This document shows, in pieces, positions 16,296 through 43,732 of a stretch of 44,401 nucleotides of DNA. Positions within the stretch are counted from its first letter, which is position 1, and each line of letters opens with the position of its first letter. The DNA is from an uncultured Rhodocyclaceae bacterium (GTDB lineage: Bacteria; Pseudomonadota; Gammaproteobacteria; Burkholderiales; Ga0077523), in assembly GCA_964510915.1 (NCBI GenBank), contig CAZEDA010000002.1, positions 1-44,401 on the forward strand. The letters run 5' to 3'. The translations under genes were made by a program, and so were the position numbers. The notes beneath the pieces were generated by a model. That model did not search any database. It was given only the letters and a program-made list of their open reading frames with translations, and had not been told where the DNA came from.

Positions 16296-17073
16296 CGGAG
16301 AACCCTTTTCGAGTCTTCTCGAACCACATGAAGCCGAGCCTGGCCACGACCACGCTTACCACGGCGTACATGAACAACCGTGCCCACGCGGGTTGGTTCC
16401 CGACCAGGGCAACGTCTCGCACCTGTTCAATGATGAAGGTGAGCGGGTTCAGAAACAGCAGAGGACGGATCTCCTTCGGCAAGACGGATGCAGGATAGAA
16501 GATCGGACTCAGAAACAGGAGGATCGTGGTGAGAATGCCTACGATTTGCCCCACATCCCTGACAAACGTGCCGACCGAAGCCAGGAACCATGCAGCACCA
16601 ACGGTGAGCACCACCAGGGGAGCGATGACGATCGGCAAGTAGAGGGCGGTCCACGGCAGGTGTCCCCGGACCAGAAGGGAGGCGAGGAGCAGCACTGCGA
16701 AGCTGATCGCAGTGTGTATCAGCGCGGCGCCCATGGTCACCCAGGGCAGAACCTCTAGCGGGAAGACGACGCGCTTCACGTAGCTGGGATTGGCAACAAT
16801 CAGGGTCGGTGCTCTCGATACGCAGTCGGCGACCATGGAGTGCATGACCAGTCCGGCGAACAGAAACAGTGCAAAGTCTCCCGACGAGTCGGACTCCGGC
16901 GTCCATCGGGCCCGGAAGATGAAGCTGAAGACGAACGTGTAGATCGCCAGCATTACGAGCGGCAGCACGAAGGACCAGACGACGCCCAGGACGGAGCCAC
17001 GATAGCGTCCAACCACCTCTCGTCTGGTCATCTGCCAGACCAGGTATCGATGGCGCCAGAGCGAACTCAACAT
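16285..17073 (-). CDS. wzm: Polysaccharide ABC transporter permease (ABC-2 type) Wzm
   Basis: MLSSLWRHRYLVWQMTRREVVGRYRGSVLGVVWSF is the canonical ABC-2 N-terminus. There are six hydrophobic segments. It overlaps wzt by 11 nt. Confidence 0.9.
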   Translation of the reverse strand: MLSSLWRHRYLVWQMTRREVVGRYRGSVLGVVWSFVLPLVMLAIYTFVFSFIFRARWTPESDSSGDFALFLFAGLVMHSMVADCVSRAPTLIVANPSYVKRVVFPLEVLPWVTMGAALIHTAISFAVLLLASLLVRGHLPWTALYLPIVIAPLVVLTVGAAWFLASVGTFVRDVGQIVGILTTILLFLSPIFYPASVLPKEIRPLLFLNPLTFIIEQVRDVALVGNQPAWARLFMYAVVSVVVARLGFMWFEKTRKGFSDVL

Positions 17074-24530: not shown

Positions 24531-25880
24531 TTACCTCCGCAGCTTCCGCGCGATCCGCCGGCGCAGGAAAAGATAGCCCATGCCGAGCGCCCGGGCGAAG
24601 AAGGTGACGGCGCCGGCCAGGGGAAGAGCAACATGAACGGTCCAGGGGAGGGCCCGATGGAGCCGATCCCGCACAATCTCCAAAGACGCACCCTGTACTT
24701 CGAATGCTTCGCGCCGTGATGCCAGAGACGGATGCCCGAACACCCGCGGATAGGCGCGGAACCCGTCTTCGGAAGGCTCCACGACGAACCCGTGCCAGAG
24801 GTCCCGTCGGACCGAGCCCTGGAGCCAGCGTTTGCCGACTCGAAGCGACTCGTGGCGCCACGAAGATCGGTAGTCTGCGGAAATCACGAATTCTTCCTGG
24901 CGCGACTGCGACCCGCTCTCTTCGCGCAGTCTGCGGATGGACGCGTTCTCGAGCAATGGCAGCACACGGCCGCTCGTGAGCGCGTCCAGCGCGGTCGTCG
25001 AGACCTGACGGCCATCGTGGGGGCCGAGATAGTTGTCAGCGCCCGCCTGGCCGGGATGCCAGGTGTGGTAGAGAAACTCGTGGCGATGCCAGACCTCGCT
25101 CAAGCCGCGGTTCACAAGTCGGAACGTCATCTCGTACGGGCCGCAGACATGCCCCAGGAAATCGATGTGCTCATCGGCGCCGCCGATTGCGATGAGGTCG
25201 CTTCGCCTCGCGCACATGCAAGCTCCGAAATTGCGGTTGTGTATCGGGTCGCTCTCGTCCGCCAGGCCGCTCGTGAGATCGCCGGCCCGATTGATGCACC
25301 CTCGGCCCGTCACGTCCTCGAAAGAAGGAAAGGCGAAGGGATACAGATCCCGTCGGATGTTTCGAAACTGGTCGATGTGAAGGACGATGTCGGGCGAGGC
25401 ATCGAACGCATCGATGATCGCGCGGATGAATCCGGGCTTCACCATTGCATCGGAGTCGCAGATCACGCAGATGTCACCGCGGGCAACGAAGATTCCGGCG
25501 TTGTACATCAGGTGCTTGTGGTAATAGCACTGCTCAGGCATCTGTAGCAGGACCCAGGCGTCCACCTGTTGCTCGAACTTGCCCACCGCTTCCGAGACCC
25601 GGGAGTAGTACTCCACCACGATGACTTCGAACTGATCCCGGTCGAGATCCTGCGCACTCAGGTAGTGCAGAAGGTGAAAGCTCTCCCGGACACTCCAGTC
25701 GAGCAGGATCAGACTGACTCTTGGACGCTCCCGCCGGCTTCGCCGGATGAAATGCAGCCCGGGTTCCTCGGCCATGGCGGGTATGCCTTCGCGAGCGGCC
25801 GGGATGCCGGACGGCTCGGGAAGATCCCGGACCGACGGCGTGTTCAGCGGCAACGGAAAGGACGTGGTCGCGTCAGACAT
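24531..25880 (-). CDS. GT2-family glycosyltransferase with a C-terminal membrane anchor
   Basis: RVSLILLDWSVRESFHLLHYL...FEVIVVEY...NAGIFVARGDICVICDSDAMV (DxD). The C-terminal hydrophobic helix VHVALPLAGAVTFFARALGMGYLFL is followed by RRRIARKLRR. Its ATG overlaps the upstream stop by 8 nt. Confidence 0.85.
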   Translation of the reverse strand: MSDATTSFPLPLNTPSVRDLPEPSGIPAAREGIPAMAEEPGLHFIRRSRRERPRVSLILLDWSVRESFHLLHYLSAQDLDRDQFEVIVVEYYSRVSEAVGKFEQQVDAWVLLQMPEQCYYHKHLMYNAGIFVARGDICVICDSDAMVKPGFIRAIIDAFDASPDIVLHIDQFRNIRRDLYPFAFPSFEDVTGRGCINRAGDLTSGLADESDPIHNRNFGACMCARRSDLIAIGGADEHIDFLGHVCGPYEMTFRLVNRGLSEVWHRHEFLYHTWHPGQAGADNYLGPHDGRQVSTTALDALTSGRVLPLLENASIRRLREESGSQSRQEEFVISADYRSSWRHESLRVGKRWLQGSVRRDLWHGFVVEPSEDGFRAYPRVFGHPSLASRREAFEVQGASLEIVRDRLHRALPWTVHVALPLAGAVTFFARALGMGYLFLRRRIARKLRR

Positions 25881-26811
25881 TCCCGTACAGGTTGTTCTTG
25901 ATCATCGTGAAGCCCTTGATGAGTTCCGTGATGCCGGCGTCCAGCGACATGGAGGTCCGGAAGCCGGTGGCTTCCAGCTTGGCGTTCGAGACGATGTAGT
26001 TGCGCTGGTCAGGGTCCTTGCCGACGGGGGCGTCGATGAACACGAACTGTGGCAGTTGCTTCTGGATGTGCTCGCACAGTTCCTTCTTCGAGACGTTGGC
26101 ATCGGACAGCCCCACGTTGTAGATCTGGCCCTTCATCTTCTCGAAGTTCGCGAGCCCGTGCTGGAACACGCGGGAGACGTCCCGCACGTGGATGTAGTTG
26201 CGTTTGAAGGCGCTCTCGAACAGCACCACGAAGCGGTCGTGCACCGCGCGATAGGTGAAGTCGTTCACCAGCAGGTCGATGCGCATGCGTGGCGACATGC
26301 CGAACACGGTGGCGAGCCGGAAGCTGATGGCGTTCTCGCGCTGCATCAGTTCCTTCTCGACTTCGACCTTTTCCTTGGCGTAAAGGGAGATCGGTCGCAG
26401 CGGCGACTCTTCCGTGCAGAAGTTGTTCTCGTCGCCGGTGCCGTAGGCGCTGTTGGTGGTCGGCATCAGGATGCGCTGTTCGCGCGAGAGCAGACGCAGC
26501 ATCAGGGAGATCGCGTCGTGATTCGTGGTCGTCGCACCCACCGGGTCCAGCGTGCAGAGCGGTGCGCCGACCAGCGCAGCGAGGGGGATCACCACGTCGG
26601 CCTTCGCGATCAGCGGCGCCATGGTGCTCTCGATGCGGATGTCTCCCTTCACGACGTCGAAGCCGGGGTGGTGGCAGACGTGGTTGAGGCTCGCCTGCTT
26701 GAACATGAAGTTGTCCACCACCGTGACCTTGTGGCCCGCGGCCAGCAGGTCGGGCACCATCGTGGAGCCCAGGTATCCGGCACCGCCCGTGACGAGAATG
26801 TTGTAGGTCAT
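25873..26811 (-). CDS. Extended SDR, NAD-dependent sugar epimerase/4-reductase
   Basis: ILVTGGAGYLGS Rossmann motif and catalytic SLYAKEK (YxxxK). It sits immediately downstream of the nucleotidyltransferase and the 3-dehydratase-like gene. Confidence 0.9.
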   Translation of the reverse strand: MTYNILVTGGAGYLGSTMVPDLLAAGHKVTVVDNFMFKQASLNHVCHHPGFDVVKGDIRIESTMAPLIAKADVVIPLAALVGAPLCTLDPVGATTTNHDAISLMLRLLSREQRILMPTTNSAYGTGDENNFCTEESPLRPISLYAKEKVEVEKELMQRENAISFRLATVFGMSPRMRIDLLVNDFTYRAVHDRFVVLFESAFKRNYIHVRDVSRVFQHGLANFEKMKGQIYNVGLSDANVSKKELCEHIQKQLPQFVFIDAPVGKDPDQRNYIVSNAKLEATGFRTSMSLDAGITELIKGFTMIKNNLYGNV

Positions 26812-26845: not shown

Positions 26846-27550
26846 TCAGTGGGTCAGCACCTGGTCCGCGCGGTGATAGTCCGACGGGATGCCGATGTCG
26901 ATGAAAGCGCCGGCGCACTCGAGTCCGAAGAGCGAATGGCCGCGCGCAAGCGCCGAGGCGAACAGGTCATCCTCCAGGGAGACCTTCTGGCCGGGCGTGA
27001 ACGGCTGGTCGGCGAGCGCTCGAGGATGCACCCGGTACACGCCCCCGTTGGCGAGCCGGCCGATCTGGTCGTCGTTGGACTTCAGCGCCAGCACGCGCCC
27101 GTCGGGGCCGATGCTCATGCCCATGTAGCGGCCCGCCTCGTTGGCGCGAAACAGCGAGAAGCACCAGTCCGCTTCGTGCTCCACGGCGAAGCGCTCGAGT
27201 TGTGCGAGTTCCACAGCGAAGTAGGTGTCGCCGTTCAGGAGGAGAAACGGCGAGTCGCCGCGCAGTCTGGCCGCCGCGAGCAGCACGCCACCGCCCGTCC
27301 CCAAGGGGGTGTCCTCCACGGCGTAGTCGATTCGCGCGTCCCGGTACTTCGAGCCGAAGTGATCCTGGATCACCTCGTGCCGGTATCCGACCGACAGTAC
27401 GAACCGTTCGATGCCCTGGCCGATCCAGTAGTCCATCAGGTGCTCGAGAAAGGGGCGCCCGGCGACGGGAGCCATGGGCTTTGGCAGGTCGGGGACAGCG
27501 CTTCGCAATCTCGTTCCGAGTCCGCCTGCGAGGATCACGGCCGCCTTCAT
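26846..27550 (-). CDS. Sugar-1-phosphate nucleotidyltransferase (HddC/WcbM-like heptose-1-phosphate guanylyltransferase candidate)
   Basis: MKAAVILAGGLGTRLRS...LPKPMAPVAGRPFLEHL...LGTGGG...LLLNGDTYF. The short (234 aa) single-domain form is typical of HddC. Confidence 0.85.
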   Translation of the reverse strand: MKAAVILAGGLGTRLRSAVPDLPKPMAPVAGRPFLEHLMDYWIGQGIERFVLSVGYRHEVIQDHFGSKYRDARIDYAVEDTPLGTGGGVLLAAARLRGDSPFLLLNGDTYFAVELAQLERFAVEHEADWCFSLFRANEAGRYMGMSIGPDGRVLALKSNDDQIGRLANGGVYRVHPRALADQPFTPGQKVSLEDDLFASALARGHSLFGLECAGAFIDIGIPSDYHRADQVLTH

Positions 27551-27556
27551 CGGCTG

Positions 27557-28726
27557 TCAGACGGCGTTCAGGATTCGACAGAGTTCGTCCACCTCGTGGT
27601 CCCGGAGGTCCGGGAAGTTGCCGATGTAGAAGCCGTAGAAGTGGACGTGATCGGTGTTGGGGAAGCGCAGGTGGTGCCCCTCCGGGACGATGCCCTTGAG
27701 ATAGGGCTGGCGGACCTGGTTGCCGCCGCCCGCGCTGCCGCGCCGGAATTCGATCCCCTCGGCGCGCATGCGCTCCATCAGGCGACCCACCAGAACGTCG
27801 TCCGCGTGGCGGAGCACCAGATTGAAGGCGTAATTGCTCGACCCCTCCACCTTGAAGTCCGTCCGGTACTTGGCGCTGTCTATCTGGGCGAGAAAGCGCT
27901 TCAGATTGTGGGTGCGACGTTCGACATTGGCGTCGAGCCGCTTCAGCTGGCTGCGCCCGAGGATCCCGCCGATCTCCGTGTTGCGCATGTTGTACGCGGG
28001 GTAGGCGAAGATGAAGTCGGGATTCAGTTCCGGATTGCCGGCCTGGTACTCGGCGCGCACGGCCGCGTCGTCGGACTCGCGCACCATCCCGTGGGACCGC
28101 AGCATGCGGACCTGCTGATAGACCTGGGGGTCGTTGGTGCACACCATGCCGCCCTCGATGGTGCTCATGTGGTGCGCGTAGTAGTAGGAAAAGTTGGAAA
28201 TCCAGCCGATGCTGCCCAGCCGGCGGCCGCCGTGCGTGGCCCCGTGGGACTCGCAAACGTCCTCGATCAGCGGGATGTCGCGCCGGGCGAGTTCCGCCAC
28301 TAGGTCGTCGGTGAGCCCGTCGAAGCCCTGAACGTGCGTGAGGAACACGGCCCGGGTCTTCGGGGTGATTGCCTCGAGGATGAGCTTCGGGTCCATGGCC
28401 AGCGTCCGCGGGTCGATGTCGACGAACACGGGCTGGAAGCCGTTCTGGAGCACGGAGGCCACGTCCGAGATCCAGGTGAGCGGGGGGACGATGACCTCTC
28501 CGCCCTCGGGATGACGGATCTTGAGCACGGCCATCGTGAGCAGGTTGGCCGAAGCGCCGGAATTGACGAAGACGCTGTACTTGACGCCCAGCCACTGGGA
28601 CCACTCCGCCTCGAATGCTCGGACGTTCGCGCCATGGGTGAGTTTCGGATCGTCCTGGCGCAGATGTTCGATGACGGCGTCCAGGTCCTCGCGCAAGATG
28701 TTGTTGCGCATCAACGGAAATTTCAT
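27557..28726 (-). CDS. DegT/DnrJ/EryC1-family PLP/PMP enzyme, ColD/E1-type nucleotide-sugar 3-dehydratase candidate
   Basis: ATG at 28726 (MKFPLMRNN), 389 aa. Family motifs VNSGASANLL, EDVCESHGA and NFSYYYAHHMSTIEGG are present. The position normally held by the Schiff-base Lys is His, as in ColD (FYSHHIATMEGG). The track ORF extension to 29059 is junk. Confidence 0.85.
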   Translation of the reverse strand: MKFPLMRNNILREDLDAVIEHLRQDDPKLTHGANVRAFEAEWSQWLGVKYSVFVNSGASANLLTMAVLKIRHPEGGEVIVPPLTWISDVASVLQNGFQPVFVDIDPRTLAMDPKLILEAITPKTRAVFLTHVQGFDGLTDDLVAELARRDIPLIEDVCESHGATHGGRRLGSIGWISNFSYYYAHHMSTIEGGMVCTNDPQVYQQVRMLRSHGMVRESDDAAVRAEYQAGNPELNPDFIFAYPAYNMRNTEIGGILGRSQLKRLDANVERRTHNLKRFLAQIDSAKYRTDFKVEGSSNYAFNLVLRHADDVLVGRLMERMRAEGIEFRRGSAGGGNQVRQPYLKGIVPEGHHLRFPNTDHVHFYGFYIGNFPDLRDHEVDELCRILNAV

Positions 28727-28943: not shown

Positions 28944-29867
28944 ATGAGCCCCGGCGCAGCGCATGTCGCGGTCGTCGGCGGGTCAAGCCAGGTGGCCCGG
29001 TTCCTCGTTCCGCGCCTTCTGGCCGCAGGCCGGTCGGTCACCGTGTATTCGCGTGGCACGCCGCCCTGGGACTACGGGGTGCCCACCGTTGCGACCGGAC
29101 TCGCCGATCTTCCCCACGTGCTGGGCGCCGCCGGTCAGACCAGCGTGCTCGTCTGGTTGCCACCGCTCCTGCTCCTGCCCGAGGTGCTTTCCGGGCTCGG
29201 CCGAGTCGGCATCCGTCGCCTCATCGCGTTCGGCACCACCGCATCGACCTACAAAGCGCAATCCCCGAGCCCTGAGGACCGCGAGTTTGCCCGCAGGACC
29301 GCCGAGGCCGAGGCGGCACTGGCAGCCGCGGGTCGTGAGAGCGGCATGGCCTGGACCATTCTCCGGCCGACGATGACGTACGGGTGCGGCCACGACGACA
29401 ACGTCACGAACGTGAGTCGCCTGGTGCGGAGGTTCGGCTGCTTTCCGCTGGCGGGCATGGCCCGGGGACTGCGTCAGCCCGTGCATGCTGATGATCTTGC
29501 AGCGGCCTGCGTGGCGGTCCTCGATGCCCAGGTGACCCACGGCAAGGTGTACGACCTGCCGGGCGGCGAGACCCTGTCATACCGGGAGATGGTGGCCCGT
29601 ATCGGCGCGGCGACGGGCAGACGGGCTCTGCTGGTGCCCCTGCCGGTGGTTGCCCTCTCGGTATTGATTGCCGTCCTGCGGCGTTCGCCGCGTTTCCGCG
29701 GACTGTCACCCGACATGGCGCTGCGCATGCAGCAGGACTTGTGTTTCGACAGTGCCGAGGCCCGCCGGGACTTCGGCTATGCCCCCGGGCCTTTCCGTCT
29801 CGACGCCGAGGCGCTGGGCCTCCCCGTCGCCGCCGGTGCGGCCGAACCTCGAGATGCCCATGGCTGA
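28944..29867 (+). CDS. Atypical SDR / NAD(P)H-binding epimerase-dehydratase family protein
   Basis: MSPGAAHVAVVGGSSQVARFLVPRLLAAGRSVTVY (a degenerate glycine motif), then ILRPTMTYG and QPVHADDLAAACV, which are typical of NAD-dependent epimerase-family proteins. An alternative ATG lies at 28905. Confidence 0.7.
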   Translation: MSPGAAHVAVVGGSSQVARFLVPRLLAAGRSVTVYSRGTPPWDYGVPTVATGLADLPHVLGAAGQTSVLVWLPPLLLLPEVLSGLGRVGIRRLIAFGTTASTYKAQSPSPEDREFARRTAEAEAALAAAGRESGMAWTILRPTMTYGCGHDDNVTNVSRLVRRFGCFPLAGMARGLRQPVHADDLAAACVAVLDAQVTHGKVYDLPGGETLSYREMVARIGAATGRRALLVPLPVVALSVLIAVLRRSPRFRGLSPDMALRMQQDLCFDSAEARRDFGYAPGPFRLDAEALGLPVAAGAAEPRDAHG

Positions 29868-30435
29868 CCCCAAACCGCCAATAACCCTAAAGTCCCGTCG
29901 CCGAATCGCCGAAAACCAGGTCTTCGACGTGTACTTCGACCACATCGTCCATGAAGGCGGCGGTGAGGTGCCCACCTATCTCGTGGTGGCGCCGAAGGCG
30001 GTGTCGCAAGACTTGGTGACAGGGGTCAGCGTTCTCCCGGTCATGGGCGGCCGCGTTGGCCTGCTCCGACTGCACCGCCATGCCATCGGGGCGATGACCT
30101 GGGAGGTGCCCCGGGGCTTCGTGGAGGTCGGCGAACCGGCGGCCGTATCGGCCGCGCGCGAGCTGGAGGAAGAGGTCGGGCTGCGCGTTGCGCCGGAAAA
30201 TCTGGCGGACGCCGGATTCATGACGCCGGAGGCGGGGATCATCGCGGCCCGTGTCGCGCTGTTCATCGCCCGCGACTGCGAGCCGGTACGCGCCTTCGCG
30301 GCGGACGAGATGGGACATTCGGCATTCGTGTGGTTCCACCTGGAAGAGGCCTTGACCATGGCAAAGTCATCGGAGATTCAGGATCCGTCCACGCTCCTCC
30401 TCGTCTATCGCCTCGCCATCGATGCGCTGCGTTGA
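29860..30435 (+). CDS. NUDIX hydrolase (nucleotide-sugar pyrophosphatase candidate)
   Basis: Complete Nudix box GFVEVGEPAAVSAARELEEEVGL. The ATG at 29860 overlaps the upstream stop (ATGGCTGA). Confidence 0.85.
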   Translation: MADPKPPITLKSRRRIAENQVFDVYFDHIVHEGGGEVPTYLVVAPKAVSQDLVTGVSVLPVMGGRVGLLRLHRHAIGAMTWEVPRGFVEVGEPAAVSAARELEEEVGLRVAPENLADAGFMTPEAGIIAARVALFIARDCEPVRAFAADEMGHSAFVWFHLEEALTMAKSSEIQDPSTLLLVYRLAIDALR

Positions 30436-30468
30436 ATCTCTCGCAACCTCGACACTGAGAGGCGTTGC

Positions 30469-33321
30469 GTGACGGCTCCCAAGTCGATCCCCCCGGGAGA
30501 GCTCCGCTTCCCCCGGCCGTTCGCGGTCTGGGCAATGGCGTTCGGGTATGCCTTGCTCGCCAGCCTGCTGTTCCAGAAGCTGATCCTTCCGGCGCTCCCG
30601 TCGCTGCATGGTGCCCACGGCCTGCTGAAGAACGACGCGCTGTTCTTCCACGACACGGCGGTCGATCTGGCGAAACAGATTCACGCCTCCGGCTGGGCCG
30701 TGCTCGAACTCTTTTCGTTCTCGGGGCTGTCCGGCAACGTGAAGCTGCTGGCGGCCGTCTACGCCCTGTTCGGCGTCGAGCCGGCCTGGTTCCTCCCGAT
30801 CACCTGCGCTTTGCATGCGCTTGCCGCGGTCCTGCTGTATCGCCTGGGGGCGCTGCTCTGGCCCGGACGGACGGGGCAGCTGGGCGGGCTGATTGCCGCA
30901 GCCCTCTTCACGCTCTCTCCGACGTCGCTCCAGTGGTACGGGCAGAACCACAAGGACGCCTTCGCCATCGCCGGGACCCTGCTGGTGGTGTACGCCTGGC
31001 TGCGGCTGCTGGTGCCGGACTGGGGTGACCGGAAGACCGTTCTGGTCAACGTCCTGCTCGCGTCGGCCGGCGCCGTGCTGGTGCTGTTCGTCCGCTCCTA
31101 CCTGCTGCAGATTCTGCTTGGCGCCATGGTGGCCGGGACGCTGCTCGCATGGGGGGCGGGCCTCGCGTTGAAGCGTCGCAACCCCGAGGAGGCCATGTCG
31201 ATTCCGCGGGCCCTGCTGCCGGTGGTCGTCGTGGCGGCCTTCGTGGCGGCAACGCCGCGCCATCAGGTCATGGAACTCGTACTGGCCGTGGACGACATTT
31301 CCACCACCAGTCACGCCCATTGGGAGTGGGAGGCCACCGACGCGCTTCCCGCGCCGATCGACCAGGCCCTGCGCAAGCTTTCCACCACGCGGGCCCATTT
31401 CGCGTCGAGCGGCCAGACGGCCGGTTCCATCGTCGACGCTGACCGGCTCCCCGCCAACGCGGTCGAAGCCCTTGCCTTCCTGCCCCGGGCGCTCGCCATC
31501 GGCCTGTTCGCGCCGTTTCCGGACACCTGGGTCGAACGTCCCACGGTCGTCCGCCTCATCGGCGCCTTCGAAACGTTGGTCTGGTATGTCATCGCGCCGG
31601 GCATCCTGCTGTTCGCATTGCGCCGTCCCACGGTCAAGCTGTTCGCGTGCTTGGGGTTCGCCGCAATCGCACTTGCCATCATGGGGTACGCGGAACCGGT
31701 GGTCGGCACCCTCTATCGCCTGCGCTTCGGTATCTGGGTCCTGCTCCTGCTGGCCGGAACAGTGGGCTGGGCGCACGCGGCGCTGCGTCTGCTCGACCGG
31801 GTCGATCTTGCCCGCGAAATCCCGTCGGGCCCGACGGCAAATTCCGGCGAAGCCCACGCCCGGGGTGGCATGACGGGCCTCGCCTCCGACGGCGGGATCG
31901 TGCTTCTGCTCTGGGGCTTCAGCCTCATCGGCTTTCTCATCCGCGACCTCGTGCTCGTCGGCACGCAGGGCCTCGATGCCCAGCTGGGCGCATTCTTCGC
32001 GGCGGCGATGGTGCCGATGTTCTTCTTTGCATTCCTGTCCGCGCCGATGGCCGACGCCCTCACCGGACCGTTCCTGGGGGCAGACCACGCAACGCGCCGA
32101 AGGATGATCCGTGCCTCGCTGGGCTGGTCTGCGCTCGTGTTTTTCGTGATCGGTGTCGCGCTGCATCTCTGGGCCGAACCGGTGATGGCCCTCGTGCTGT
32201 CGGGTGCGGATGTGTCGACCGTCCGCGAGTCCGCGCGGATGCTCCGCTGGAGCATTCCCTTTCTCGCGTGTTCCGGGTGGACCGTGATCGGGGCGGCCGT
32301 GCTGAACGCGGGTCGCCGATCCCGGATCGTGGCCGTCGCGCAGTTGTGCGTGCCCATTGTCGCGGTCGCCGCGTTCCTCGTCCTCGGTGATTCCGTGGGC
32401 GTGATGGCTGTCGTCTACGGCATGCTGGCGGGCATGGCAATCAACACCGCCATCGTTTCCTGGGCTGCCACGCGCGCCGGTTATCCGCTGGTGCCATCGC
32501 TCGAAGTCAGGGGCCTGCCGCTGCGGGATGTCCTCGGGCGCTATGCAGCGCTGGGGGCCGCCGCGTTGTTCGCCGCCGGTACGGTGCCGCTCAACTTCGC
32601 ATTCGCCGGGATGCTGGGAGCGGACGCGGTTCCTGCGTGGGCCTTCGCCTCCAAACTCGTGCAGGTCTTCACGACCACGGTCGGCTTCGCCATCGGTGCG
32701 GTGGTGCTCCCCCATCTGGGCAGTCTCGTGGCGGCGCGAAGCCGTGCGCAGCTTCGCGATGACACCGTGTTCCTCCTCGTGATCGGTGCCTGGGTCGCCG
32801 CGCTCTGCGCCCTGGCGGTCGATGCGCTTGCCGAGCCCGTTGCCGTCGCGCTCCTGGCCGGCGACCGGATCTCGGCGGCGCAGGCCTCCCAGCTCGCCGA
32901 CATTCTCCGCATCGGTGCGCTCCAGCTGCCGTTCGTGGTCTCCGGCGCGGTACTGGCCAAGGTCGCCGCCGTCGCCGGCGGCTCGTGGCGGGCTACGATG
33001 GCGGCCGCGGTCGGTTTCGCGGTGAATCTCGGTGCGAATGTCATGCTGGCGCCGATCCTCGGCGTCGAAGGCGTGGCGTTCGCCTCCACCGCAGGCGCTG
33101 GCATGGCGTCGGTGACCATGCTGCTGCTGGCTCGACGGCGTGCGGACCTGGCCTTCCGGGATGTCGTGCTCGTCTGCGGTCTCTGGGGCGGGGTGGCGAT
33201 CCTCGGGGCGGCCGTCACGACACGGAGTCTTGCGGTTGCGCTGCTTTCCGTCGTGGTTCTGGCGATCGTGGGACGCATGCAGTGGGTCGGATTCGCGGGT
33301 CGGGAAGAGGCGGCGCGATGA
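30469..33321 (+). CDS. Fusion protein: N-terminal polytopic membrane domain (GT-C/PMT_2-like?) plus C-terminal MurJ/MviN-family (MOP) flippase domain
   Basis: Single uninterrupted 950-codon frame with a GTG start and GAGAGG upstream. Residues ~1-440 are multi-TM, with an acidic first loop (LLKNDALFFHDTAVDLAKQ). From about residue 465 the MurJ signatures appear: FSLIGFLIRDLVLVGTQGLDAQLGAFFAAAMVP (compare SRVLGFARD...G...DAFF.A...P) and WAFASKLVQVFTTTVGFAIGAVVLPHL (compare YADRL...G.A..T..LP.L). Confidence 0.8.
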   Translation: MTAPKSIPPGELRFPRPFAVWAMAFGYALLASLLFQKLILPALPSLHGAHGLLKNDALFFHDTAVDLAKQIHASGWAVLELFSFSGLSGNVKLLAAVYALFGVEPAWFLPITCALHALAAVLLYRLGALLWPGRTGQLGGLIAAALFTLSPTSLQWYGQNHKDAFAIAGTLLVVYAWLRLLVPDWGDRKTVLVNVLLASAGAVLVLFVRSYLLQILLGAMVAGTLLAWGAGLALKRRNPEEAMSIPRALLPVVVVAAFVAATPRHQVMELVLAVDDISTTSHAHWEWEATDALPAPIDQALRKLSTTRAHFASSGQTAGSIVDADRLPANAVEALAFLPRALAIGLFAPFPDTWVERPTVVRLIGAFETLVWYVIAPGILLFALRRPTVKLFACLGFAAIALAIMGYAEPVVGTLYRLRFGIWVLLLLAGTVGWAHAALRLLDRVDLAREIPSGPTANSGEAHARGGMTGLASDGGIVLLLWGFSLIGFLIRDLVLVGTQGLDAQLGAFFAAAMVPMFFFAFLSAPMADALTGPFLGADHATRRRMIRASLGWSALVFFVIGVALHLWAEPVMALVLSGADVSTVRESARMLRWSIPFLACSGWTVIGAAVLNAGRRSRIVAVAQLCVPIVAVAAFLVLGDSVGVMAVVYGMLAGMAINTAIVSWAATRAGYPLVPSLEVRGLPLRDVLGRYAALGAAALFAAGTVPLNFAFAGMLGADAVPAWAFASKLVQVFTTTVGFAIGAVVLPHLGSLVAARSRAQLRDDTVFLLVIGAWVAALCALAVDALAEPVAVALLAGDRISAAQASQLADILRIGALQLPFVVSGAVLAKVAAVAGGSWRATMAAAVGFAVNLGANVMLAPILGVEGVAFASTAGAGMASVTMLLLARRRADLAFRDVVLVCGLWGGVAILGAAVTTRSLAVALLSVVVLAIVGRMQWVGFAGREEAAR

Positions 33322-33926
33322 GCGTCGCCGCCGACCGCGCAGGTCGCCCTGCGGTCTTCGTCGATCGGGATGGCACCCTCAACGTCGAGAAGAACTACCT
33401 CTACCGGATCGAGGACTGGGAGTGGATTCCCGGTGCCGTAGAGGCCATCCGCCGCCTGAACAGCGCCGGATATGTCGTGGTAGTGGTGACCAACCAGGCC
33501 GGCATCGCCCGCGGGTTCTACGGCGAGTCCGAACTCCAGCGGCTGCATGCCTGGGTCGATGCCGACGCACGAAGGGCGGACGCGAAGATCGACGCCTACT
33601 ACCATTGCCCTCATCATCCGGACCACGGGGCGCGCGAAACGTGCGACTGCCGCAAGCCGGCGCCGGGCATGCTCCTGCGAGCGGCGGCGGACCATGGCAT
33701 CGACCTCAGCCGGTCCTTCATCATCGGGGACCGGGAGTCGGATCTCGAAGCCGGAAGCCGCTGTGGCGCCACCCCGCTCCTGGTCGGCACGGGCCACGGC
33801 GCCCGTACCCGGCGCGAATTCCCGTCCGATGCGCCGTACTTTCCCTCGGTGGTGGAGGCCGTGACGTTCATCCTGGAGACCAGCCCGACCGGCGAACAGC
33901 CCGACAGCGACGGCGTCGCGCGATGA
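33318..33926 (+). CDS. gmhB: D-glycero-D-manno-heptose 1,7-bisphosphate phosphatase (HAD-IIIA)
   Basis: FVDRDGTLN (DxDxT), VVVTNQAGIARG, and the zinc-site pattern YYHCPHHP...CDCRKPAPGM followed by IGDRESD. ATGA overlap with the upstream gene. Confidence 0.9.
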   Translation: MSVAADRAGRPAVFVDRDGTLNVEKNYLYRIEDWEWIPGAVEAIRRLNSAGYVVVVVTNQAGIARGFYGESELQRLHAWVDADARRADAKIDAYYHCPHHPDHGARETCDCRKPAPGMLLRAAADHGIDLSRSFIIGDRESDLEAGSRCGATPLLVGTGHGARTRREFPSDAPYFPSVVEAVTFILETSPTGEQPDSDGVAR

Positions 33927-35365
33927 GGGCCATCCTCATCGTGGCCGCGGGTCGTCTGCTGCAGATGATCGCGGCCTTCCTGACGCTCAAGCTGTCCACC
34001 ACGCTGATGGACCCCGGCCAGGTCGGGCAGATCAATCAGATGGTGGCCTTCGTCACCCTCTTTGCGACGGGCATCGTCGTGCCTCTCGTCGTCTACTTCG
34101 CCCGGGGCATCGTCGGATGGGTGGACGCCGGACAGTTCCGCCGTCGCCTGCGGGAGGTGATGATCGCCATCGCCGTCGCGACCGCCGTCCTCACGCCCCT
34201 CGCGCTCGTAGTTCAGGCGGCGTGGTCCCCCGTGCACGGCATCGAGCTGCGCTGGTTCGTCGCGCTCTTCGCCCTTTACGTGTTCGGATTCTCGTCCTAC
34301 ACGCTCCTGCTCAATTGCGTGGCCGTGCTGGGCCAGCGTGTCCGTAGCGCGGTGTACTCCAACTTGGCGTCCTGGGGCGGGCTGGCGCTGGCCGTCATCC
34401 TGTTCGGACTCGACCGCAGCCCCTGGCAGTGGACGCTTGGCGTGTTCCTGGGCTACGCGATTGCCATCCAGGGGTTGTGGGCCGTCCGCAGCGGCGCCAA
34501 CCGGCCGCCGTCCTACGGCGACAGCGTGCCGCTCTCCCTCAAGCCGGCAACGGTCTGGGCCTTCGTGTGGCCGCAGGTCGCCATGTTCGCGCTCTGGTGG
34601 ACGCAGTCGCAGAGCTACCGTTTCGTCCTCGCCGAAGTGAGCACGGTGGCGGCGGTCGGCCTGTTCTTCGCCGCCTATGCGCTCATCTCCGTGCCGATGC
34701 AGGCATTCGAGGCCGCGTTCAACGAGGTCTACTCACCGACCCTCTATCGCGATTTCGAGGGCGGCGGCGCGGATGCCAAGGTGCAGGCGTGGAACCGCTA
34801 TGCATCGGCGTACATGCCGTCCATCCTCGTCTTCGGCTGCTTTCTCGCGGGCTGCGCTCCGCACCTCGCGCGGCTCGCGCTCGGGCCGGCCTTCCAGATC
34901 GGCGCGCTGTTCTTCGTGTGGCCGGCACTCGCTGAAACGGGACGCGCCCTGGCATCTGTCAATCACACGCTCGGCGTGGCGAAGGTCGACATGCGTCTGC
35001 TCCTCCCGCCGGCCCTGGCCGGCGCCGTCGTGGCGCCGATCCTGGTCCTGATCCTGGCGCCGGCATCGCCGCTCCTCGGAACGGGCGCTGCCCTCTGTGC
35101 TGCCAGCCTCGCCGTCCTCGTCGTGGTCTACGCGGTTTCGCGCCGCACGCCCGGACTCGTCTGGCCTGTGGGTCGCATCGCCTCCGGCCTGTTCGCTGGC
35201 CTGCCGATCACCGGGCTCGGGATTGCCCTCGACGCCTGGCTTCCAGCGACGCCGGCCGGTTCGCTGATCGCGTGCGCAGGTCTCGGCATGCTGGCGCTGG
35301 CAGCGCTGTTCCTGCTCGGGCGACCCTGGCTTCGAACGTTGCAGGGTCCTCGCGCGGCGACCTGA
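33923..35365 (+). CDS. Wzx-like polysaccharide (PST/MOP-family) flippase
   Basis: ATGA overlap with gmhB. 480 aa with about 12-14 hydrophobic helices. The N-terminus RLLQMIAAFLTLKLSTTLMDPGQVGQINQMVAFVTLFATGIVVP is typical of oligosaccharide-flippase family proteins. Confidence 0.8.
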   Translation: MRAILIVAAGRLLQMIAAFLTLKLSTTLMDPGQVGQINQMVAFVTLFATGIVVPLVVYFARGIVGWVDAGQFRRRLREVMIAIAVATAVLTPLALVVQAAWSPVHGIELRWFVALFALYVFGFSSYTLLLNCVAVLGQRVRSAVYSNLASWGGLALAVILFGLDRSPWQWTLGVFLGYAIAIQGLWAVRSGANRPPSYGDSVPLSLKPATVWAFVWPQVAMFALWWTQSQSYRFVLAEVSTVAAVGLFFAAYALISVPMQAFEAAFNEVYSPTLYRDFEGGGADAKVQAWNRYASAYMPSILVFGCFLAGCAPHLARLALGPAFQIGALFFVWPALAETGRALASVNHTLGVAKVDMRLLLPPALAGAVVAPILVLILAPASPLLGTGAALCAASLAVLVVVYAVSRRTPGLVWPVGRIASGLFAGLPITGLGIALDAWLPATPAGSLIACAGLGMLALAALFLLGRPWLRTLQGPRAAT

Positions 35366-39668: not shown

Positions 39669-40546
39669 CCGATGCGTCCGCGGACCGGCCGCTCGTCACC
39701 ATCGCCCTGCCGGCCCGGAACTCCGCCGCCACGCTCGCCCTCACGCTGGCGTCGATTCGCTGGCAGACGCTCGTGTCCTGGGAACTCCTGCTGATGGACG
39801 ACGGCTCCACGGACGACACCGTCGCCATTGCGCGCGCTGCGGGGGACGCACGAATCGTCGTGCACTCCGACGGTCGCCATGCCGGCCTCGCGACGCGACT
39901 CAACCAGGCCATCGATCTCGCGCGCGGCCGGTACTTCGCACGGATGGACGCCGACGACATCGCCTACCCGCAGCGCCTGCAAACGCAGCTCGACTTCCTC
40001 GAGGCGCACCCCGACGTGGACCTCGTGGCGGCACGCGCGCTCGCATTCCGGGGCGAGGGCGAAGTGATCGGTCTGCTGCCGCATCGCGCCGTGCACGAGG
40101 AGATCTGCGCGCAGCCCTGGAGCGGCATTCCGATGCCGCATCCCACCTGGTTCGGGCGGATCGAATGGTTCCGGCGACATCGGTATGGCGTCCCCGACGC
40201 TCCGCGCGCGGAGGATCAGGAACTGCTGATGCGCGCGGCGGACGTGAGCCGCTATGCCGCCTGCCCGGAGATCCTCCTGGGCTACCGGCAGGGGGACTAC
40301 TCCGCGACGCGCATGCTGAAGGGGCGGTTCGGCCGCTTGCAGGCGTACACCCGGCATGCGCGCGCACGCGGCGACGGCGCGGGCGTCCTGCGCGCCACGC
40401 TCGTCGCCTGGGCGAAGGCGGGCGTGGATGTCCTGGCCGGGCTGCCGGGATGCGAGGCGCTCTTCTTCCGTCGGATCGGCGCGGCGCCCACCGACGTGCA
40501 GCGACGGGAATGGGAATCGTTGTGGCAGCGGCTGCGCGCAGCGTGA
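39665..40546 (+). CDS. GT2-family glycosyltransferase
   Basis: VTIALPARNSAATLALTLASIRWQT...LLLMDDGSTDDT...FARMDADDIAYPQRL. ATGA overlap with the upstream gene. Confidence 0.85.
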   Translation: MTDASADRPLVTIALPARNSAATLALTLASIRWQTLVSWELLLMDDGSTDDTVAIARAAGDARIVVHSDGRHAGLATRLNQAIDLARGRYFARMDADDIAYPQRLQTQLDFLEAHPDVDLVAARALAFRGEGEVIGLLPHRAVHEEICAQPWSGIPMPHPTWFGRIEWFRRHRYGVPDAPRAEDQELLMRAADVSRYAACPEILLGYRQGDYSATRMLKGRFGRLQAYTRHARARGDGAGVLRATLVAWAKAGVDVLAGLPGCEALFFRRIGAAPTDVQRREWESLWQRLRAA

Positions 40547-40574
40547 TGCGGCACGTTCGCGAGGAGCGGCCCTG

Positions 40575-42545
40575 ATGTGCGGGTTCGCCGGATTCTGGCG
40601 GGCGGGACCCGTGGATCCGCAGGTCGCGACGCGGGCGGGTGAGGCGATGGCCGCTTCACTCGTGCATCGCGGGCCGGACGACCATGGCTTGTGGCTCGAT
40701 GCTGCCGCTGGCATCACGCTGGCGCATCGTCGCCTGTCGATCCTCGACCTGTCACCCGAGGGTCATCAGCCCATGCTTTCGGCGAGCGGGCGCCTGGTGA
40801 TCGCCTTCAACGGCGAGATCTACAACTTCGGCGAACTGCGCGCGGAACTGGAAGCATCCGGTCACTCGACGCCGTGGCGCGGGCACTCCGATACGGAAGT
40901 GATGCTCGCCGCGTTCGAACGCTGGGGCGTGGAGGCTGCGCTCGAGCGGATGGTGGGCATGTTCGCCTTCGCCCTGTGGGACCGCGAAGCGCGCAGCCTG
41001 ACGCTCGGGCGGGACCGGTTCGGCGAGAAGCCGCTCTACTACGGCTGGTCGGGCGGGCTGCTGCTGTTCGCCTCGGAACTGAAGGCTTTCCGCGCCCATC
41101 CCGATTTCCGCGCGAGCCTCGACCGCGAGGCGCTGTCGCTCTACGTCCGACATGCCTGCATTCCGGCGCCGCGGTCGATCTATACCGGTGTCTCGAAGCT
41201 CGCGCCCGGTCACGTCGTGCGGTTTTCGGAGGCGCATCTTGCCGAGGGCCGGTCGCCCGCGTCCACGCCGTACTGGTCGCTCGGCGAGGCCATACGTGCG
41301 GCCCGGTCGGACCCGTTCCGCGGCACACCGGCCGAAGCGGCGGAAGCGCTGCATTCCCTCCTCGGCAGCGCCGTGGAGGCGCAGATGGTGGCGGACGTTC
41401 CGCTGGGCGCCTTCCTGTCTGGCGGGATCGACTCGTCGACGGTCGTCGCGCTGATGCAGGCGCACAGCGCGCGGCCGGTGCGTACCTTCACCATCGGATT
41501 TCGCGAAGGCGACTACGACGAGGCCGCCGACGCGCGTGCCGTGGCCGCGCATCTCGGCACGGACCACACCGAGTGGATCCTCTCGCCGGAGGAGGCACGC
41601 AGTGCCGTGCCGCGCCTGCCGATCCTCTACGACGAACCCTTCGCTGATTCCTCGCAGATCCCCACGCATCTGGTCGCAGGGCTCGCGCGACAGCACGTCA
41701 CGGTGAGTCTGTCCGGCGATGCCGGCGACGAAATCTTCGGCGGCTACAACCGGCACCGTCTGGCCAATCGCCTTGGCCGCCTCGGCGAGCGGTTTCCCGC
41801 CGGGCTGCGCCGTTCCGCGGCGAGCCTGCTCCGCTCCGTGCCGCCGGCGGGCTGGGACCGGCTGGCGCGAGGCGGCGCGAAACTGCTGCCGCAGCTTCGG
41901 CGGCACAAGGCGGTCGGCGATCGCATTCACAAGCTTGCCGGTGTCCTCGGCGCAGAAGACGCTGCTCAGCTCTACGAGCAGCTGACGAGTTTCTGGGGGG
42001 CGGAACTGGTCGCAGGCCATCGCGCCGGGCCGAGCGGCTGGCTGACGGCTGATGCGCCGCCGTCGCTCTCCCTGCCCGAGCGCATGATGTTTCTCGATAC
42101 GCTCGGCTATCTTCCGGACGACATCCTCGTGAAGGTCGATCGCGCCGCGATGGGCGTGAGCCTCGAGACGCGCGTGCCCTTTCTCGACCATCGTGTCGCG
42201 GCGTTCGCGTGGCGGCTTCCGATCGATCACAAGGTCGACGACCGCCGGGGCAAGAAGATCCTCCGGGACGTTCTCTACCGGTACGTGCCCGCAGCGCTGG
42301 TGGAGCGACCCAAGATGGGTTTCGGCATTCCGCTCGATGCCTGGCTGCGCGGACCGCTCCGGGCATGGGCGGAATCGCTGCTGGACGAAGAGCGTCTGCG
42401 GCGCGAGGGGTTCTTCGACGCCGTCGCCGTGCGACGGTGCTGGAGCGAGCATCTCGCCGGCACGCGCAACTGGCAGCACCGGCTTTGGGTCGTGCTAATG
42501 TTCGAAGCATGGCTCGACACCTGGAGCGGAGGGCTCGTCGCTTGA
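40575..42545 (+). CDS. asnB: Asparagine synthase (glutamine-hydrolysing)-family amidotransferase (WbpS-like)
   Basis: N-terminal nucleophile MCGFAG, LAHRRLSILD, FNGEIYNF, and the PP-loop FLSGGIDSS. Confidence 0.9.
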   Translation: MCGFAGFWRAGPVDPQVATRAGEAMAASLVHRGPDDHGLWLDAAAGITLAHRRLSILDLSPEGHQPMLSASGRLVIAFNGEIYNFGELRAELEASGHSTPWRGHSDTEVMLAAFERWGVEAALERMVGMFAFALWDREARSLTLGRDRFGEKPLYYGWSGGLLLFASELKAFRAHPDFRASLDREALSLYVRHACIPAPRSIYTGVSKLAPGHVVRFSEAHLAEGRSPASTPYWSLGEAIRAARSDPFRGTPAEAAEALHSLLGSAVEAQMVADVPLGAFLSGGIDSSTVVALMQAHSARPVRTFTIGFREGDYDEAADARAVAAHLGTDHTEWILSPEEARSAVPRLPILYDEPFADSSQIPTHLVAGLARQHVTVSLSGDAGDEIFGGYNRHRLANRLGRLGERFPAGLRRSAASLLRSVPPAGWDRLARGGAKLLPQLRRHKAVGDRIHKLAGVLGAEDAAQLYEQLTSFWGAELVAGHRAGPSGWLTADAPPSLSLPERMMFLDTLGYLPDDILVKVDRAAMGVSLETRVPFLDHRVAAFAWRLPIDHKVDDRRGKKILRDVLYRYVPAALVERPKMGFGIPLDAWLRGPLRAWAESLLDEERLRREGFFDAVAVRRCWSEHLAGTRNWQHRLWVVLMFEAWLDTWSGGLVA

Positions 42546-43732
42546 GTGCGCCGCGGCTGCTGTTCCTCATCAGCGAGGACTGGTTCTTCTGCTCCCATCG
42601 CCTGCCGCTTGCCATCGCCGCGCGCGAGGCTGGTTTCCACGTCACCGTGGCCACGCGCGTCGGCAAGGATGCCGAGCGCATCCGCGCTGCCGGGCTCGAT
42701 CTGATTCCTCTGCACTGGTCCCGTCGCAGCACCCATCCGCTGAGGGAACTCGCCGCGCTGCGTGAGGTGATCGCCGTGTTCCGCAAGGTGCGGCCCCACA
42801 TCGTGCATCAGGTGGCCATCAAGCCGGTGCTGTACGGGTCGGTCGCGGCGAGGGTGACGCGCGTGCCGATCATCATCAACGCCGTGGCGGGGCTGGGCTA
42901 CGTCTTCGCCTCGCAGGACTTCAAGGCCAGGGTGCTGCGCCCGATCCTGCGCGCCGCGTTCCATCTGCTGCTCGATCGCCACAACGCGCGACTCATCCTG
43001 CAGAACCGCGACGACGCCGAGCAGTTCACCCGCGAGCGCATCGTCGAACGCTCGCGCGTGACGCTGATCCGAGGCTCCGGCGTCGATCCGTCGCGCTTCA
43101 CCGTCGTGCCCGAGCTGGAAGGCCCGCCATTGGTCGTACTCCCCGCGCGAATGCTGCGCGACAAGGGCGTGGAGGAATTCGTGCAGGCGGCGCGCGCGTT
43201 GCGGCGAGATGGCGTGCAGGCCCGTTTCGCCCTGGTGGGTTCGCCCGACCCGGAGAACCTCGCCTGCATCCCCGAGACACAGCTGACCGAGTGGCAGGCC
43301 GAGGGCGTCATCGAGTACTGGGGCTGGTGCAACGACATGATTCCGGTGTTCCAGCAGGCCCATGTCGTGTGCCTGCCGTCCTATCGCGAAGGATTGCCCA
43401 AGGCGCTGATCGAGGCCGCCGCCTGCGGCCGGGCGATCGTCACGACGGACGTGCCGGGCTGCCGCGAAGTCGTGACCGACGGTGACAACGGGCTGCTAGT
43501 TTCTGCGCGTGATGCCGACAGCCTTGCCCGCGCACTGCGCCGGCTCATCGAGGACACGGCGCTGCGTCAGGCGATGGGGCGCCGCGGCCGCGAGCGGGCG
43601 GAGCAGGAGTTTTCCATGACCCGCGTCATCGCCGAGACGTTCGCGCTCTACCGCAGCGCCATGACCGAGGCCGGCGAACGCGTCCCGCCATTGACCGGTG
43701 CGGCCGTCGCCGCCACCCGCGCGGAAAGATGA
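42542..43732 (+). CDS. GT4-family (GT-B) glycosyltransferase
   Basis: TTG start overlapping the asnB stop (TTGA). LLFLISEDWFFCSHRLPLA, followed by the EX7E region SYREGLPKALIEAAACGRAIVTTDVPGCREVV. Confidence 0.85.
   Translation: MSAPRLLFLISEDWFFCSHRLPLAIAAREAGFHVTVATRVGKDAERIRAAGLDLIPLHWSRRSTHPLRELAALREVIAVFRKVRPHIVHQVAIKPVLYGSVAARVTRVPIIINAVAGLGYVFASQDFKARVLRPILRAAFHLLLDRHNARLILQNRDDAEQFTRERIVERSRVTLIRGSGVDPSRFTVVPELEGPPLVVLPARMLRDKGVEEFVQAARALRRDGVQARFALVGSPDPENLACIPETQLTEWQAEGVIEYWGWCNDMIPVFQQAHVVCLPSYREGLPKALIEAAACGRAIVTTDVPGCREVVTDGDNGLLVSARDADSLARALRRLIEDTALRQAMGRRGRERAEQEFSMTRVIAETFALYRSAMTEAGERVPPLTGAAVAATRAER

Follow-up and report, generated by a model that had tools for sequence, protein, structure and literature searches.

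The stretch of DNA analysed here (the window) comprises 44,401 nt of contig CAZEDA010000002.1 from an uncultured Rhodocyclaceae bacterium and encodes a glycan locus. On its plus strand, genes for an SDR-like protein and a NUDIX hydrolase are followed by the subject of this work, a gene that fuses a multi-pass membrane domain in frame to a MurJ-type flippase, and then by genes for GmhB, a probable Wzx, a DUF268 methyltransferase, a GT2, a methyltransferase, a GT11, an FkbM methyltransferase, a second GT2, an AsnB-type amidotransferase and a GT4. The divergent operon encodes DegT, an HddC-like nucleotidyltransferase, a dehydratase, further GT2 enzymes, a PMT_2 protein and Wzm/Wzt. The fusion starts 33 nt downstream of the stop codon of the NUDIX gene, and its TGA overlaps the ATG of the GmhB gene (ATGA), which suggests translational coupling of the two. 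The original prediction, made from the DNA alone, had described one uninterrupted frame of 950 codons, and the open reading frame (ORF) was found at exactly these positions (Table 1).

Table 1. Features of the fusion gene and its surroundings, in window coordinates (aa, amino acid positions in the fusion protein; TM, transmembrane; EL, extracytoplasmic loop)
Feature	Position	Strand	Basis and remarks
Complete fusion gene	30469..33321	+	950 codons, GTG start, TGA stop; ORF list
Shine-Dalgarno-like GAGAGG	30457..30462	+	6 nt 5' of the fusion GTG; read from the sequence
Predicted GT-C class-A glycosyltransferase domain (aa 1-444)	30469..31800	+	~10 TM helices, both ends cytoplasmic (inferred); AlphaFold (AF2), Foldseek, hhalign
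D56 codon	30634..30636	+	No substitution in 96 fused and 3 stand-alone homologues; begins the first juxtamembrane helix on the periplasmic side
Signature motif WYGQNHKD (aa 156-163)	30934..30957	+	Predicted periplasmic loop 2; W156, Q159 and D163 invariant
Large periplasmic loop EL4 (aa 262-359)	31252..31545	+	Invariant W287, R308, R340 and PFP..W motif; also D323
Cytoplasmic linker, poorly conserved (aa 445-467)	31801..31869	+	pLDDT 56-61; dN/dS 0.64; length varies across the alignment
MurJ-family MOP flippase domain (aa 468-950)	31870..33318	+	14 TM helices; PF03023, Foldseek, AF2
R492-D493 codons	31942..31947	+	Invariant; align with MurJ R24-D25 in TM1 (phmmer alignment to 7waw)
K729 codon	32653..32655	+	Invariant; aligns with MurJ R270 (conservative change)
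NUDIX hydrolase gene, upstream	29860..30435 (start approximate)	+	Pfam NUDIX; also upstream in locus L042 and the P0001 contig
GmhB (D-glycero-beta-D-manno-heptose 1,7-bisphosphate 7-phosphatase)	33318..33926	+	NF006506, 187 bits vs cut-off 178
480-aa polytopic protein, probable Wzx-type flippase	33923..35365	+	Weak Polysacc_synt_3 match, E = 0.0018; >=10 hydrophobic segments; L042 orthologue
Wzm (ABC2_membrane)	16285-17073	-	Divergent operon; ABC-transporter polysaccharide export
Wzt/TagH-like ATPase	14898-16295	-	Paired with Wzm
PMT_2-type GT-C protein, 688 aa	18234-20300	-	Divergent operon

The fusion is a genuine, selected single gene. Third-position GC content is 0.80-0.93 in a single phase along the whole ORF, and the window contains no N or other ambiguous bases. 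The phase shows no frame switch at 31750-31900, where the original prediction had raised the possibility of a frameshift or assembly artefact. A homologue search covering 5.8 billion proteins returned 103 protein clusters with full-length coverage (90-100% of the query), nearly all of them 920-990 aa long and with identities down to 29%. When WYGQNHKD was used as a pattern to scan 185,579 reference genomes, 38 loci were found, 34 of which are not cut by contig ends, and a single fused ORF occurs in 30 of these 34. The orthologue in a Betaproteobacteria metagenome-assembled genome (MAG; locus L001) is also 2853 nt long, without indels, and the ungapped alignment is 87.1% identical. The differences fall 61, 32 and 275 times on first, second and third codon positions, and the ratio of nonsynonymous to synonymous change (dN/dS) is 0.09 for the N-terminal domain, 0.07 for the C-terminal domain and 0.64 for the 23-residue linker between them. 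At 92% identity, an orthologue of equal length shows a dN/dS of about 0.08. Close relatives are not split.

The alternative would be two neighbouring genes joined through a frameshift or a lost stop codon. A few relatives do have a split arrangement (L036, L045 and L033), and one MAG carries a frameshifted copy (L024). However, NCBI, JGI, ENA and Logan together supply over 100 independent clusters of the fused length and the linker evolves in frame between the window and L001, so that the uniform phase, the fused homologues and the equal-length orthologue under purifying selection together leave an artefact with a negligible probability. The apparently split homologue of L024 (P0105; 9926-12220, contig CAWDRW010000007.1) was considered as a pair of separate genes and rejected: its ORFs of 472 aa and 291 aa both end out of frame, with ends unrelated to the family consensus, probably because of an assembly indel error or because the copy is a pseudogene.

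The C-terminal half was readily assigned. The Pfam family MurJ (PF03023) is recognised in aa 503-939, which align with positions 8-440 of its 451-position profile (E = 4.5e-19), and the score of 68.8 bits lies above the cut-off of 27.4. It is the sole Pfam match in the fusion; the Wzx-type Polysacc_synt families (PF01943 / PF13440) are not matched. The full-length AF2 model has a mean predicted local distance difference test score (pLDDT) of 88.2 and a predicted TM-score (pTM) of 0.89, and places 14 helices in aa 468-943, as in the MurJ fold with its two 6-helix lobes and TM13-14. The complete MurJ-like MOP domain that had been proposed is accordingly present in both profile and model. The best Foldseek matches of the full-length model in the PDB are MurJ structures (9ukv, 7wax, 6nc9 and 5t77, TMt 0.70-0.75). 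The top 13 are all MurJ (TMt 0.58-0.75), followed by MATE transporters and WzxE. Only these three groups were returned for the full-length model, and matches for the N-terminal domain appeared after it had been modelled separately.

By its score the C-terminal half is not a lipid II flippase equivalog, as the NCBIfam equivalog model TIGR01695 gives 79.5 bits, below its cut-off of 235.55. In MurJ, R18, R24, R52 and R270 (E. coli numbering) are the essential cavity arginines. This set is incomplete in the fusion: R24 is kept, R270 is changed to Lys, and R18 and R52 are lost, with Leu and Phe standing opposite them when the sequence is aligned to 7waw. Other polar residues of the domain are conserved (N613, Q625, N659, K729, Q819 and K831), and together with the low dN/dS they make it look like a working transporter with another substrate.

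The N-terminal ~440 residues had been described as multi-pass, and the domain as modelled comprises 444 aa with ~10 membrane-spanning helices plus juxtamembrane helices. Its separate AF2 model, built from 97 sequences, has a pLDDT of 88.5 and a pTM of 0.91. In a Foldseek comparison with the PDB, 19 of the top 20 matches (21 of 25) are GT-C class A enzymes or a GT-C-fold subunit of the GPI transamidase, PIG-U (9ub7_B). The matches include human and yeast STT3, archaeal AglB, the C-mannosyltransferase DPY19, AftA, ArnT, ALG9, ALG3 and Pmt4, with probabilities of 0.91-1.0 and a best E of 4.8e-5 against class-A GT-C structures. An hhalign comparison of the N-domain profile with a 450-aa protein (P0110) gave a probability of 98.6% (E = 1e-15, 346 columns), and P0110 itself matches Pfam PMT_2 at 3.2e-11; the PMT_2 link of the N-domain is indirect only, because it runs via this match. 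As modelled, then, the N-terminal half has the GT-C class A fold (OST/ArnT-like; OST, oligosaccharyltransferase) and is a member of a previously unnamed family. The likeness to a glycan-processing fold of GT-C/PMT_2 type that had been guessed from an acidic loop is borne out, and of the ArnT, PMT, PglB-type and WaaL folds suggested for comparison, those of class A were matched and WaaL/Wzy was not.

Other assignments of the N-domain were rejected. The Wzy/WaaL/PglL fold (Wzy_C PF04932, GT-C class B) gave no Pfam match, and the comparison with WaaL (7tpg) yielded a probability of 0.16 and a TM-score of 0.22. Kinship with the PMT_2 protein of the window is not detectable (hhalign probability 0.5%). 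A periplasmic domain of STT3/PglB/AglB type with WWDYG was not found either: the N-domain has no soluble domain and no STT3 match in Pfam or NCBIfam. After the last GT-C helix the chain continues with the 23-aa linker and then TM1 of MurJ.

Conservation was examined in two alignments, one of 96 fused homologues (A1) and one that includes three stand-alone paralogues at 28-30% identity (A2). A topology with 10 TM helices and both termini cytoplasmic agrees with the positive-inside rule, given mean loop charges over the 96 sequences of +0.9 at the N-terminus, +1.8 and +2.0 in cytoplasmic loops CL3 and CL4, and -3.0 in EL1. An even number of helices, with both ends inside, is also favoured because the N-terminus of the MurJ domain is cytoplasmic, and this is the sole compatible parity. 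The 10-TM model is predicted to place all invariant polar residues on the periplasmic side, in loops or at helix ends. Two longer GT-C-MurJ fusions of 1075-1080 aa (L046, 3808-7050, and L047, 9476-12703) carry a Cys-rich insert of ~110 aa in EL4, with which a periplasmic location of that loop fits.

EL1 (aa 43-104, with helices 56-74 and 76-79 in the AF2 model) is the long first loop typical of GT-C class A. It contains the motif NDALFFHDTAVD (residues 55-66), on which the claim of an acidic first loop had been based; the claim stands for the loop as a whole and for D56, which is invariant across the 96 homologues, and does not stand for D62 and D66 of the same motif, which vary. By its position in EL1, D56 agrees in general location with an acidic residue conserved among GT-C class A enzymes, and by analogy it is a candidate catalytic base or metal ligand. 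A closer residue-level parallel with the catalytic layout of PglB and ArnT may exist. The polar residues of the N-domain that are invariant in both A1 and A2 are D56, Q159, D163, R308, R340, E368, R417 and R419; K162 and D323 reach full conservation in A2 and >=90% in A1. The signature motifs of the domain are HGLLxNDA, WYGQNHKD, PRAL..GLFAPFP..W and GTLYRxR. The median identity is 43% for the GT-C half versus 32% for the flippase half. The greater conservation of the N-domain sets it apart from serotype-specific Wzy enzymes and suggests that it recognises a constant portion of its substrate.

How widespread is the coupling of these two modules? An exhaustive HMMER search with the N-domain alone against 1.84 billion representatives (50% identity) matched 1,326 proteins at E <= 1e-3, of which 234 reach E <= 1e-30. 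The best 150 of the 1,326 include 57 GT-C-MurJ fusions, 12 longer proteins and 59 stand-alone proteins of 400-560 aa. The 12 longer proteins exceed 1050 aa, with the N-domain match starting at about residue 290-360, and those examined (P0030, P0034 and P0046) are GT2-GT-C-MurJ triple fusions. A fusion in one polypeptide, which the original prediction had called unusual, is so in comparison with described systems but not in sequence space, where 69 of the best 150 representatives carry it.

Arrangements with separate genes also occur, and a stand-alone GT-C gene usually adjoins a flippase gene of MurJ or Wzx type. In L044, a stand-alone GT-C gene precedes and overlaps a Wzx-type (Polysacc_synt) flippase gene, and in L045 and L036 the GT-C gene is directly followed by a separate gene of MurJ type. 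The only cultured carrier found, Formivibrio citricus DSM 6150 (L033; NZ_FOVE01000006.1, 8972-12946), has a permuted and split version: an 812-aa GT2-MurJ protein ends in a stop codon, and 3 nt later in the same frame follows a stand-alone GT-C of 510 aa. An extra stand-alone GT-C paralogue adjoins each of the fusions in L046 and L047, and L046 also has a Wzy_C gene. A Polaromonas MAG (L037, 6273-11981) encodes three stand-alone GT-C paralogues in tandem (481, 512 and 465 aa). None of the three has a MurJ domain, and upstream of them lies a gene for a 380-aa polytopic protein that matches no Pfam family. Over the family, the two halves rise and fall together in their identity to the window protein (r = 0.94), and the pTM of the full-length model is too high for independently placed halves, which would point to a fixed arrangement of the domains. 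Whether fused, in triple fusions, permuted or adjacent, the GT-C and MOP modules are, on the evidence of these sequences, functionally linked.

Neighbouring genes were counted across 44 loci. A GT4 gene is present in 29, within ~100 nt of the fusion in roughly nine and 0.6-9 kb away on either side elsewhere. A small PglC-like polyprenyl glycosylphosphotransferase (Bac_transf) is encoded in 24 loci, mostly at a distance of 0-3.6 kb and at most 7.6 kb. Genes for a DegT aminotransferase were counted in 22 loci and those for a PglD-like acetyltransferase in 17; a PglF/WbpM-like dehydratase is also common. The predicted product of this PglC/PglD/DegT/PglF-like module is a primer of 2,4-diamino-trideoxyhexose type linked to undecaprenyl diphosphate (Und-PP). 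The fusion is the sole polytopic flippase or polymerase candidate within 10 kb in ~15 loci, and no ABC-2 exporter or Wzm homologue occurs in the related loci outside the window. The minimal cluster L044 consists of PglC/D/E/F, one GT4 and an acyltransferase, with no GT2. Where GT2 domains are fused or adjacent, they resemble EpsE, TuaG, WcaA, HpsN and PglI, and none of them gave a match of GtrB, ArnC or DPMS type; the aligned part is chiefly the nucleotide-binding half, and a C-terminal hydrophobic helix is present in some of the proteins. EpsE, WcaA, HpsN and PglI act on Und-PP-glycans. In a Pseudomonas sp. (L039; GCA_049653025.1, 8611-12802), the fusion comes directly behind an HU/IHF-family gene (Bac_DNA_binding), which we take to be ihfB and which follows cmk and rpsA; this is presumably the classical Pseudomonas O-antigen locus, and the fusion takes the place that wzz normally has there. 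Farther downstream, a separate Wzx is encoded.

The window itself shares synteny with L042 and with the P0001 contig. With L001 it shares only the NUDIX-fusion-GmhB segment (29838-33816 in the window versus 9370-13341 in L001, 85% nucleotide identity), and the other glycan genes differ, which suggests that this cassette recombines between differing glycan clusters. Besides the fusion the window has Wzm/Wzt, and besides the N-domain the 688-aa PMT_2 protein, which gives it two routes of glycan export and a pair of GT-C candidates that are not related to each other. Minus-strand genes encode an HddC-like heptose-1-phosphate guanylyltransferase (26846-27550, below cut-off), a GDP-mannose-dehydratase-like SDR (25873-26811) and a DegT aminotransferase (27557-28720). 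Taken with GmhB, they suggest that a modified GDP-heptose is made for the window glycan. The AsnB-type amidotransferase (40356-42545, plus strand) has its best match in the XrtA/PEP-CTERM model TIGR03108 (550 bits, below the cut-off of 817), and the GT4 (42209-43732, plus strand) in the PEP-CTERM-system glycosyltransferase 'stp2', as do fusion-adjacent GT4s in other loci. These neighbours hint at a link to exosortase-type exopolysaccharide loci.

The fusion has parallels in several known systems and is identical to none. With MurJ (PF03023; 5T77, 6NC9, 6CC4, 7WAW) it shares the 14-helix fold (TMt 0.70-0.75), a score above the Pfam cut-off, R24-D25, and R270 in the form of K729. It differs in falling below TIGR01695, in the loss of R18 and R52, in lying in a variable glycan cluster and not in a housekeeping context, and in the enzyme domain of 444 aa that precedes the flippase. 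With class-A GT-C enzymes (STT3/PglB/AglB, ArnT, PMT/PMT_2, DPY19, ALG3/ALG9 and AftA) the N-domain has in common a TM1 followed by a long EL1, juxtamembrane helices, an invariant Asp, and acidic and basic residues conserved where the membrane meets the periplasm. Unlike them it has ~10 TM helices and signature motifs of its own, and it lacks a soluble periplasmic domain and a WWDYG-type motif, since the chain runs directly into the flippase.

At the level of gene clusters, the pgl loci of Campylobacter and Neisseria combine the PglK flippase with PglB, a GT-C of class A. The inventory of the fusion loci is similar, with a PglF/PglE/PglD/PglC-like module, GT4, a flippase and a class-A GT-C; however, the fusion has no STT3-type periplasmic domain, and the window cassette is tied to GDP-heptose genes and not to diNAcBac genes. 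Heteropolysaccharide clusters with an initiating transferase and several glycosyltransferases are also typical of Wzx/Wzy/WaaL (PglL) systems, and in L044 the GT-C gene ahead of the wzx-type flippase gene would occupy the usual slot of wzy. The N-domain differs from Wzy in being GT-C class A and in being highly conserved across clusters with different glycan genes. In the GacI/J-GacK-GacL and WpsA/B-WpsG-WpsJ systems, a lipid-linked sugar made in the cytoplasm is flipped by a Wzx-type MOP protein and used outside by a GT-C enzyme (PMC10821137). The same logic applies to GacI/J-GacK-GacL, WpsA/B-WpsG-WpsJ/WpsH and GtrB-GtrA-GtrC as to the present proteins, and the GT2-GT-C-MurJ triple fusions mirror the three functions in one chain. 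In those systems, however, the components are separate, whereas here they are covalently fused, the flippase is of MurJ type, the GT2s are not GtrB/GacI-like by sequence, and the initiating enzymes are PglC-like.

So, what does the fusion do? From its architecture and gene context, we consider it probable, though well short of certain, that it is a bifunctional flip-and-transfer enzyme of the inner membrane in a lipid-linked glycan pathway, be it for O-antigen, exopolysaccharide or a glycoconjugate. Cytoplasmic enzymes of the cluster, mostly a PglC-like transferase and GT4 with further GT2/GT4/GT11, would build an Und-PP-linked oligosaccharide. The MurJ-like domain would flip this oligosaccharide, most likely in its Und-PP-linked form, to the periplasmic leaflet, where the attached GT-C domain would capture it and transfer it at the periplasmic face. 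The acceptor may be either the next lipid-linked unit, as for a polymerase, or the final acceptor, as for a ligase or an oligosaccharyltransferase, and the covalent link would hand the substrate straight from flippase to transferase. The occurrence of the cassette amid different glycan genes and the high conservation of the N-domain suggest that the fusion has a relaxed glycan specificity. A bolder version, which we put forward tentatively and rate as less likely than the general proposal, is that the N-domain, with a family size of at least 1,300 clusters at 50% identity, founds a new class-A GT-C family that uses flipped Und-PP-oligosaccharides. It would be an OST-like en-bloc transferase or a Wzy-independent polymerase, free of any soluble domain and supplied by direct channelling from the fused flippase. 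In this version it would replace Wzy/WaaL/PglL in the pgl-like clusters that Betaproteobacteria, methanotrophs, Verrucomicrobia, Nitrospirae and further groups carry.

Several observations weigh against a flip-and-transfer enzyme. The Foldseek TM-scores of the N-domain are moderate (0.45-0.48, with TMq 0.43-0.48 for the best matches) and the root mean square deviation is large, aa 1-480 have no Pfam match even at E <= 10, PMT_2 (PF13231) included, the N-domain matches no NCBIfam model, and its profile found nothing among PDB sequences. Two of the cavity arginines of MurJ are gone, as noted above. Around the fusion in the window, no PglC-like initiating enzyme is found, and the probable Wzx is a second MOP-like protein in the same operon. 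A separate Wzx also occurs in ~11 loci besides the window, and a Wzy_C protein in ~5; in such loci other proteins could also serve as flippase or polymerase, and the fusion may act on another lipid-linked species.

The main rival, which we regard as unlikely yet worth keeping in view, is that the MOP domain flips an Und-P-sugar made by a GT2 and that the GT-C domain adds it as a branch to a periplasmic polysaccharide, in the manner of Gac and Gtr. A four-component system that includes a GT2, a Wzx-type flippase and a GT-C is the accepted model for GacIJKL and WpsA/B-WpsG-WpsJ (PMC10821137). A GT2 is fused N-terminally in 12 of the top 150 representatives, and Formivibrio has GT2-MurJ with a separate GT-C. 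The separate Wzx of many loci, the window included, could flip the main repeat unit, the ABC-transporter O-polysaccharide pathway of the window could supply the acceptor polymer, and the presence of several GT-C paralogues per cluster (L037, L046 and L047) fits linkage-specific decorating enzymes. However, the matches of the fused and adjacent GT2s to EpsE, TuaG, WcaA, HpsN and PglI, with none of GtrB, ArnC or DPMS type, tend to speak against branch addition, as do minimal clusters such as L044 without any GT2, and the fact that most fusions, that of the window among them, have no fused GT2.

Two further explanations, like the artefact considered above, are poorly supported. If the GT-C domain were catalytically dead and PIG-U-like, binding the lipid carrier or tethering the flippase to partners, the presence of PIG-U among the structural matches and the absence of a soluble periplasmic acceptor-binding domain would follow naturally. 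This is improbable given the N-domain dN/dS and the ten polar residues listed above, which are invariant down to 28% identity with the stand-alone paralogues included; in the model, D56 lies in the first periplasmic loop like the acidic residue of GT-C class A, and D163 is in a periplasmic loop as well. Alternatively, the protein could be the housekeeping lipid II flippase MurJ with a non-catalytic N-domain that serves, for example, localisation or regulation. In source databases the homologues go under 'lipid II flippase MurJ' or under 'peptidoglycan biosynthesis protein MviN/MurJ', Pfam MurJ is above cut-off, and MurJ structures are the best matches. Yet the TIGR01695 score is far below threshold, R18 and R52 are now hydrophobic, and the gene lies in variable polysaccharide clusters in all loci examined. 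The N-domain is the more conserved half, with many invariant polar residues, and it also occurs alone beside Wzx-type flippases. The names look like annotation carry-over, found as they are on GT-C proteins without a MurJ domain too. A housekeeping role is accordingly very improbable, even more so than a catalytically dead GT-C domain.

Each of the two folds is familiar; the novelty lies in the GT-C family and in its being covalently joined to a flippase. No described GT-C-MOP, MurJ-GT or Wzx-Wzy fusion and no account of the N-domain GT-C family were found in the literature searched, and one candidate paper used 'fused' only for cloning. The N-domain defines a large unnamed GT-C family with clear signature motifs that has no Pfam or NCBIfam model. 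Three stand-alone GT-C proteins of 436-455 aa without a MurJ domain (P0140, P0134 and P0254) bear the JGI/IMG name 'putative peptidoglycan lipid II flippase', apparently carried over from fused proteins. Hundreds of family members, stand-alone ones included, are labelled 'lipid II flippase MurJ', which can mislead the reconstruction of peptidoglycan pathways in MAGs.

The hand-over of flipped lipid-linked oligosaccharides from MOP flippases, and the existence of Wzx-Wzy-type complexes, have long been debated, and direct evidence is scarce. With its predicted rigid two-domain structure, the fusion would be a ready object for cryo-electron microscopy and for the reconstitution of coupled flipping and transfer. 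Should the enzyme tolerate varied glycans, as its cassette-like conservation suggests, it may also be of use in glycoengineering. If it is indeed a channelled replacement enzyme, it would be the first natural fusion of a flippase and a transferase, and would provide direct evidence that flipping and periplasmic transfer are physically coupled.

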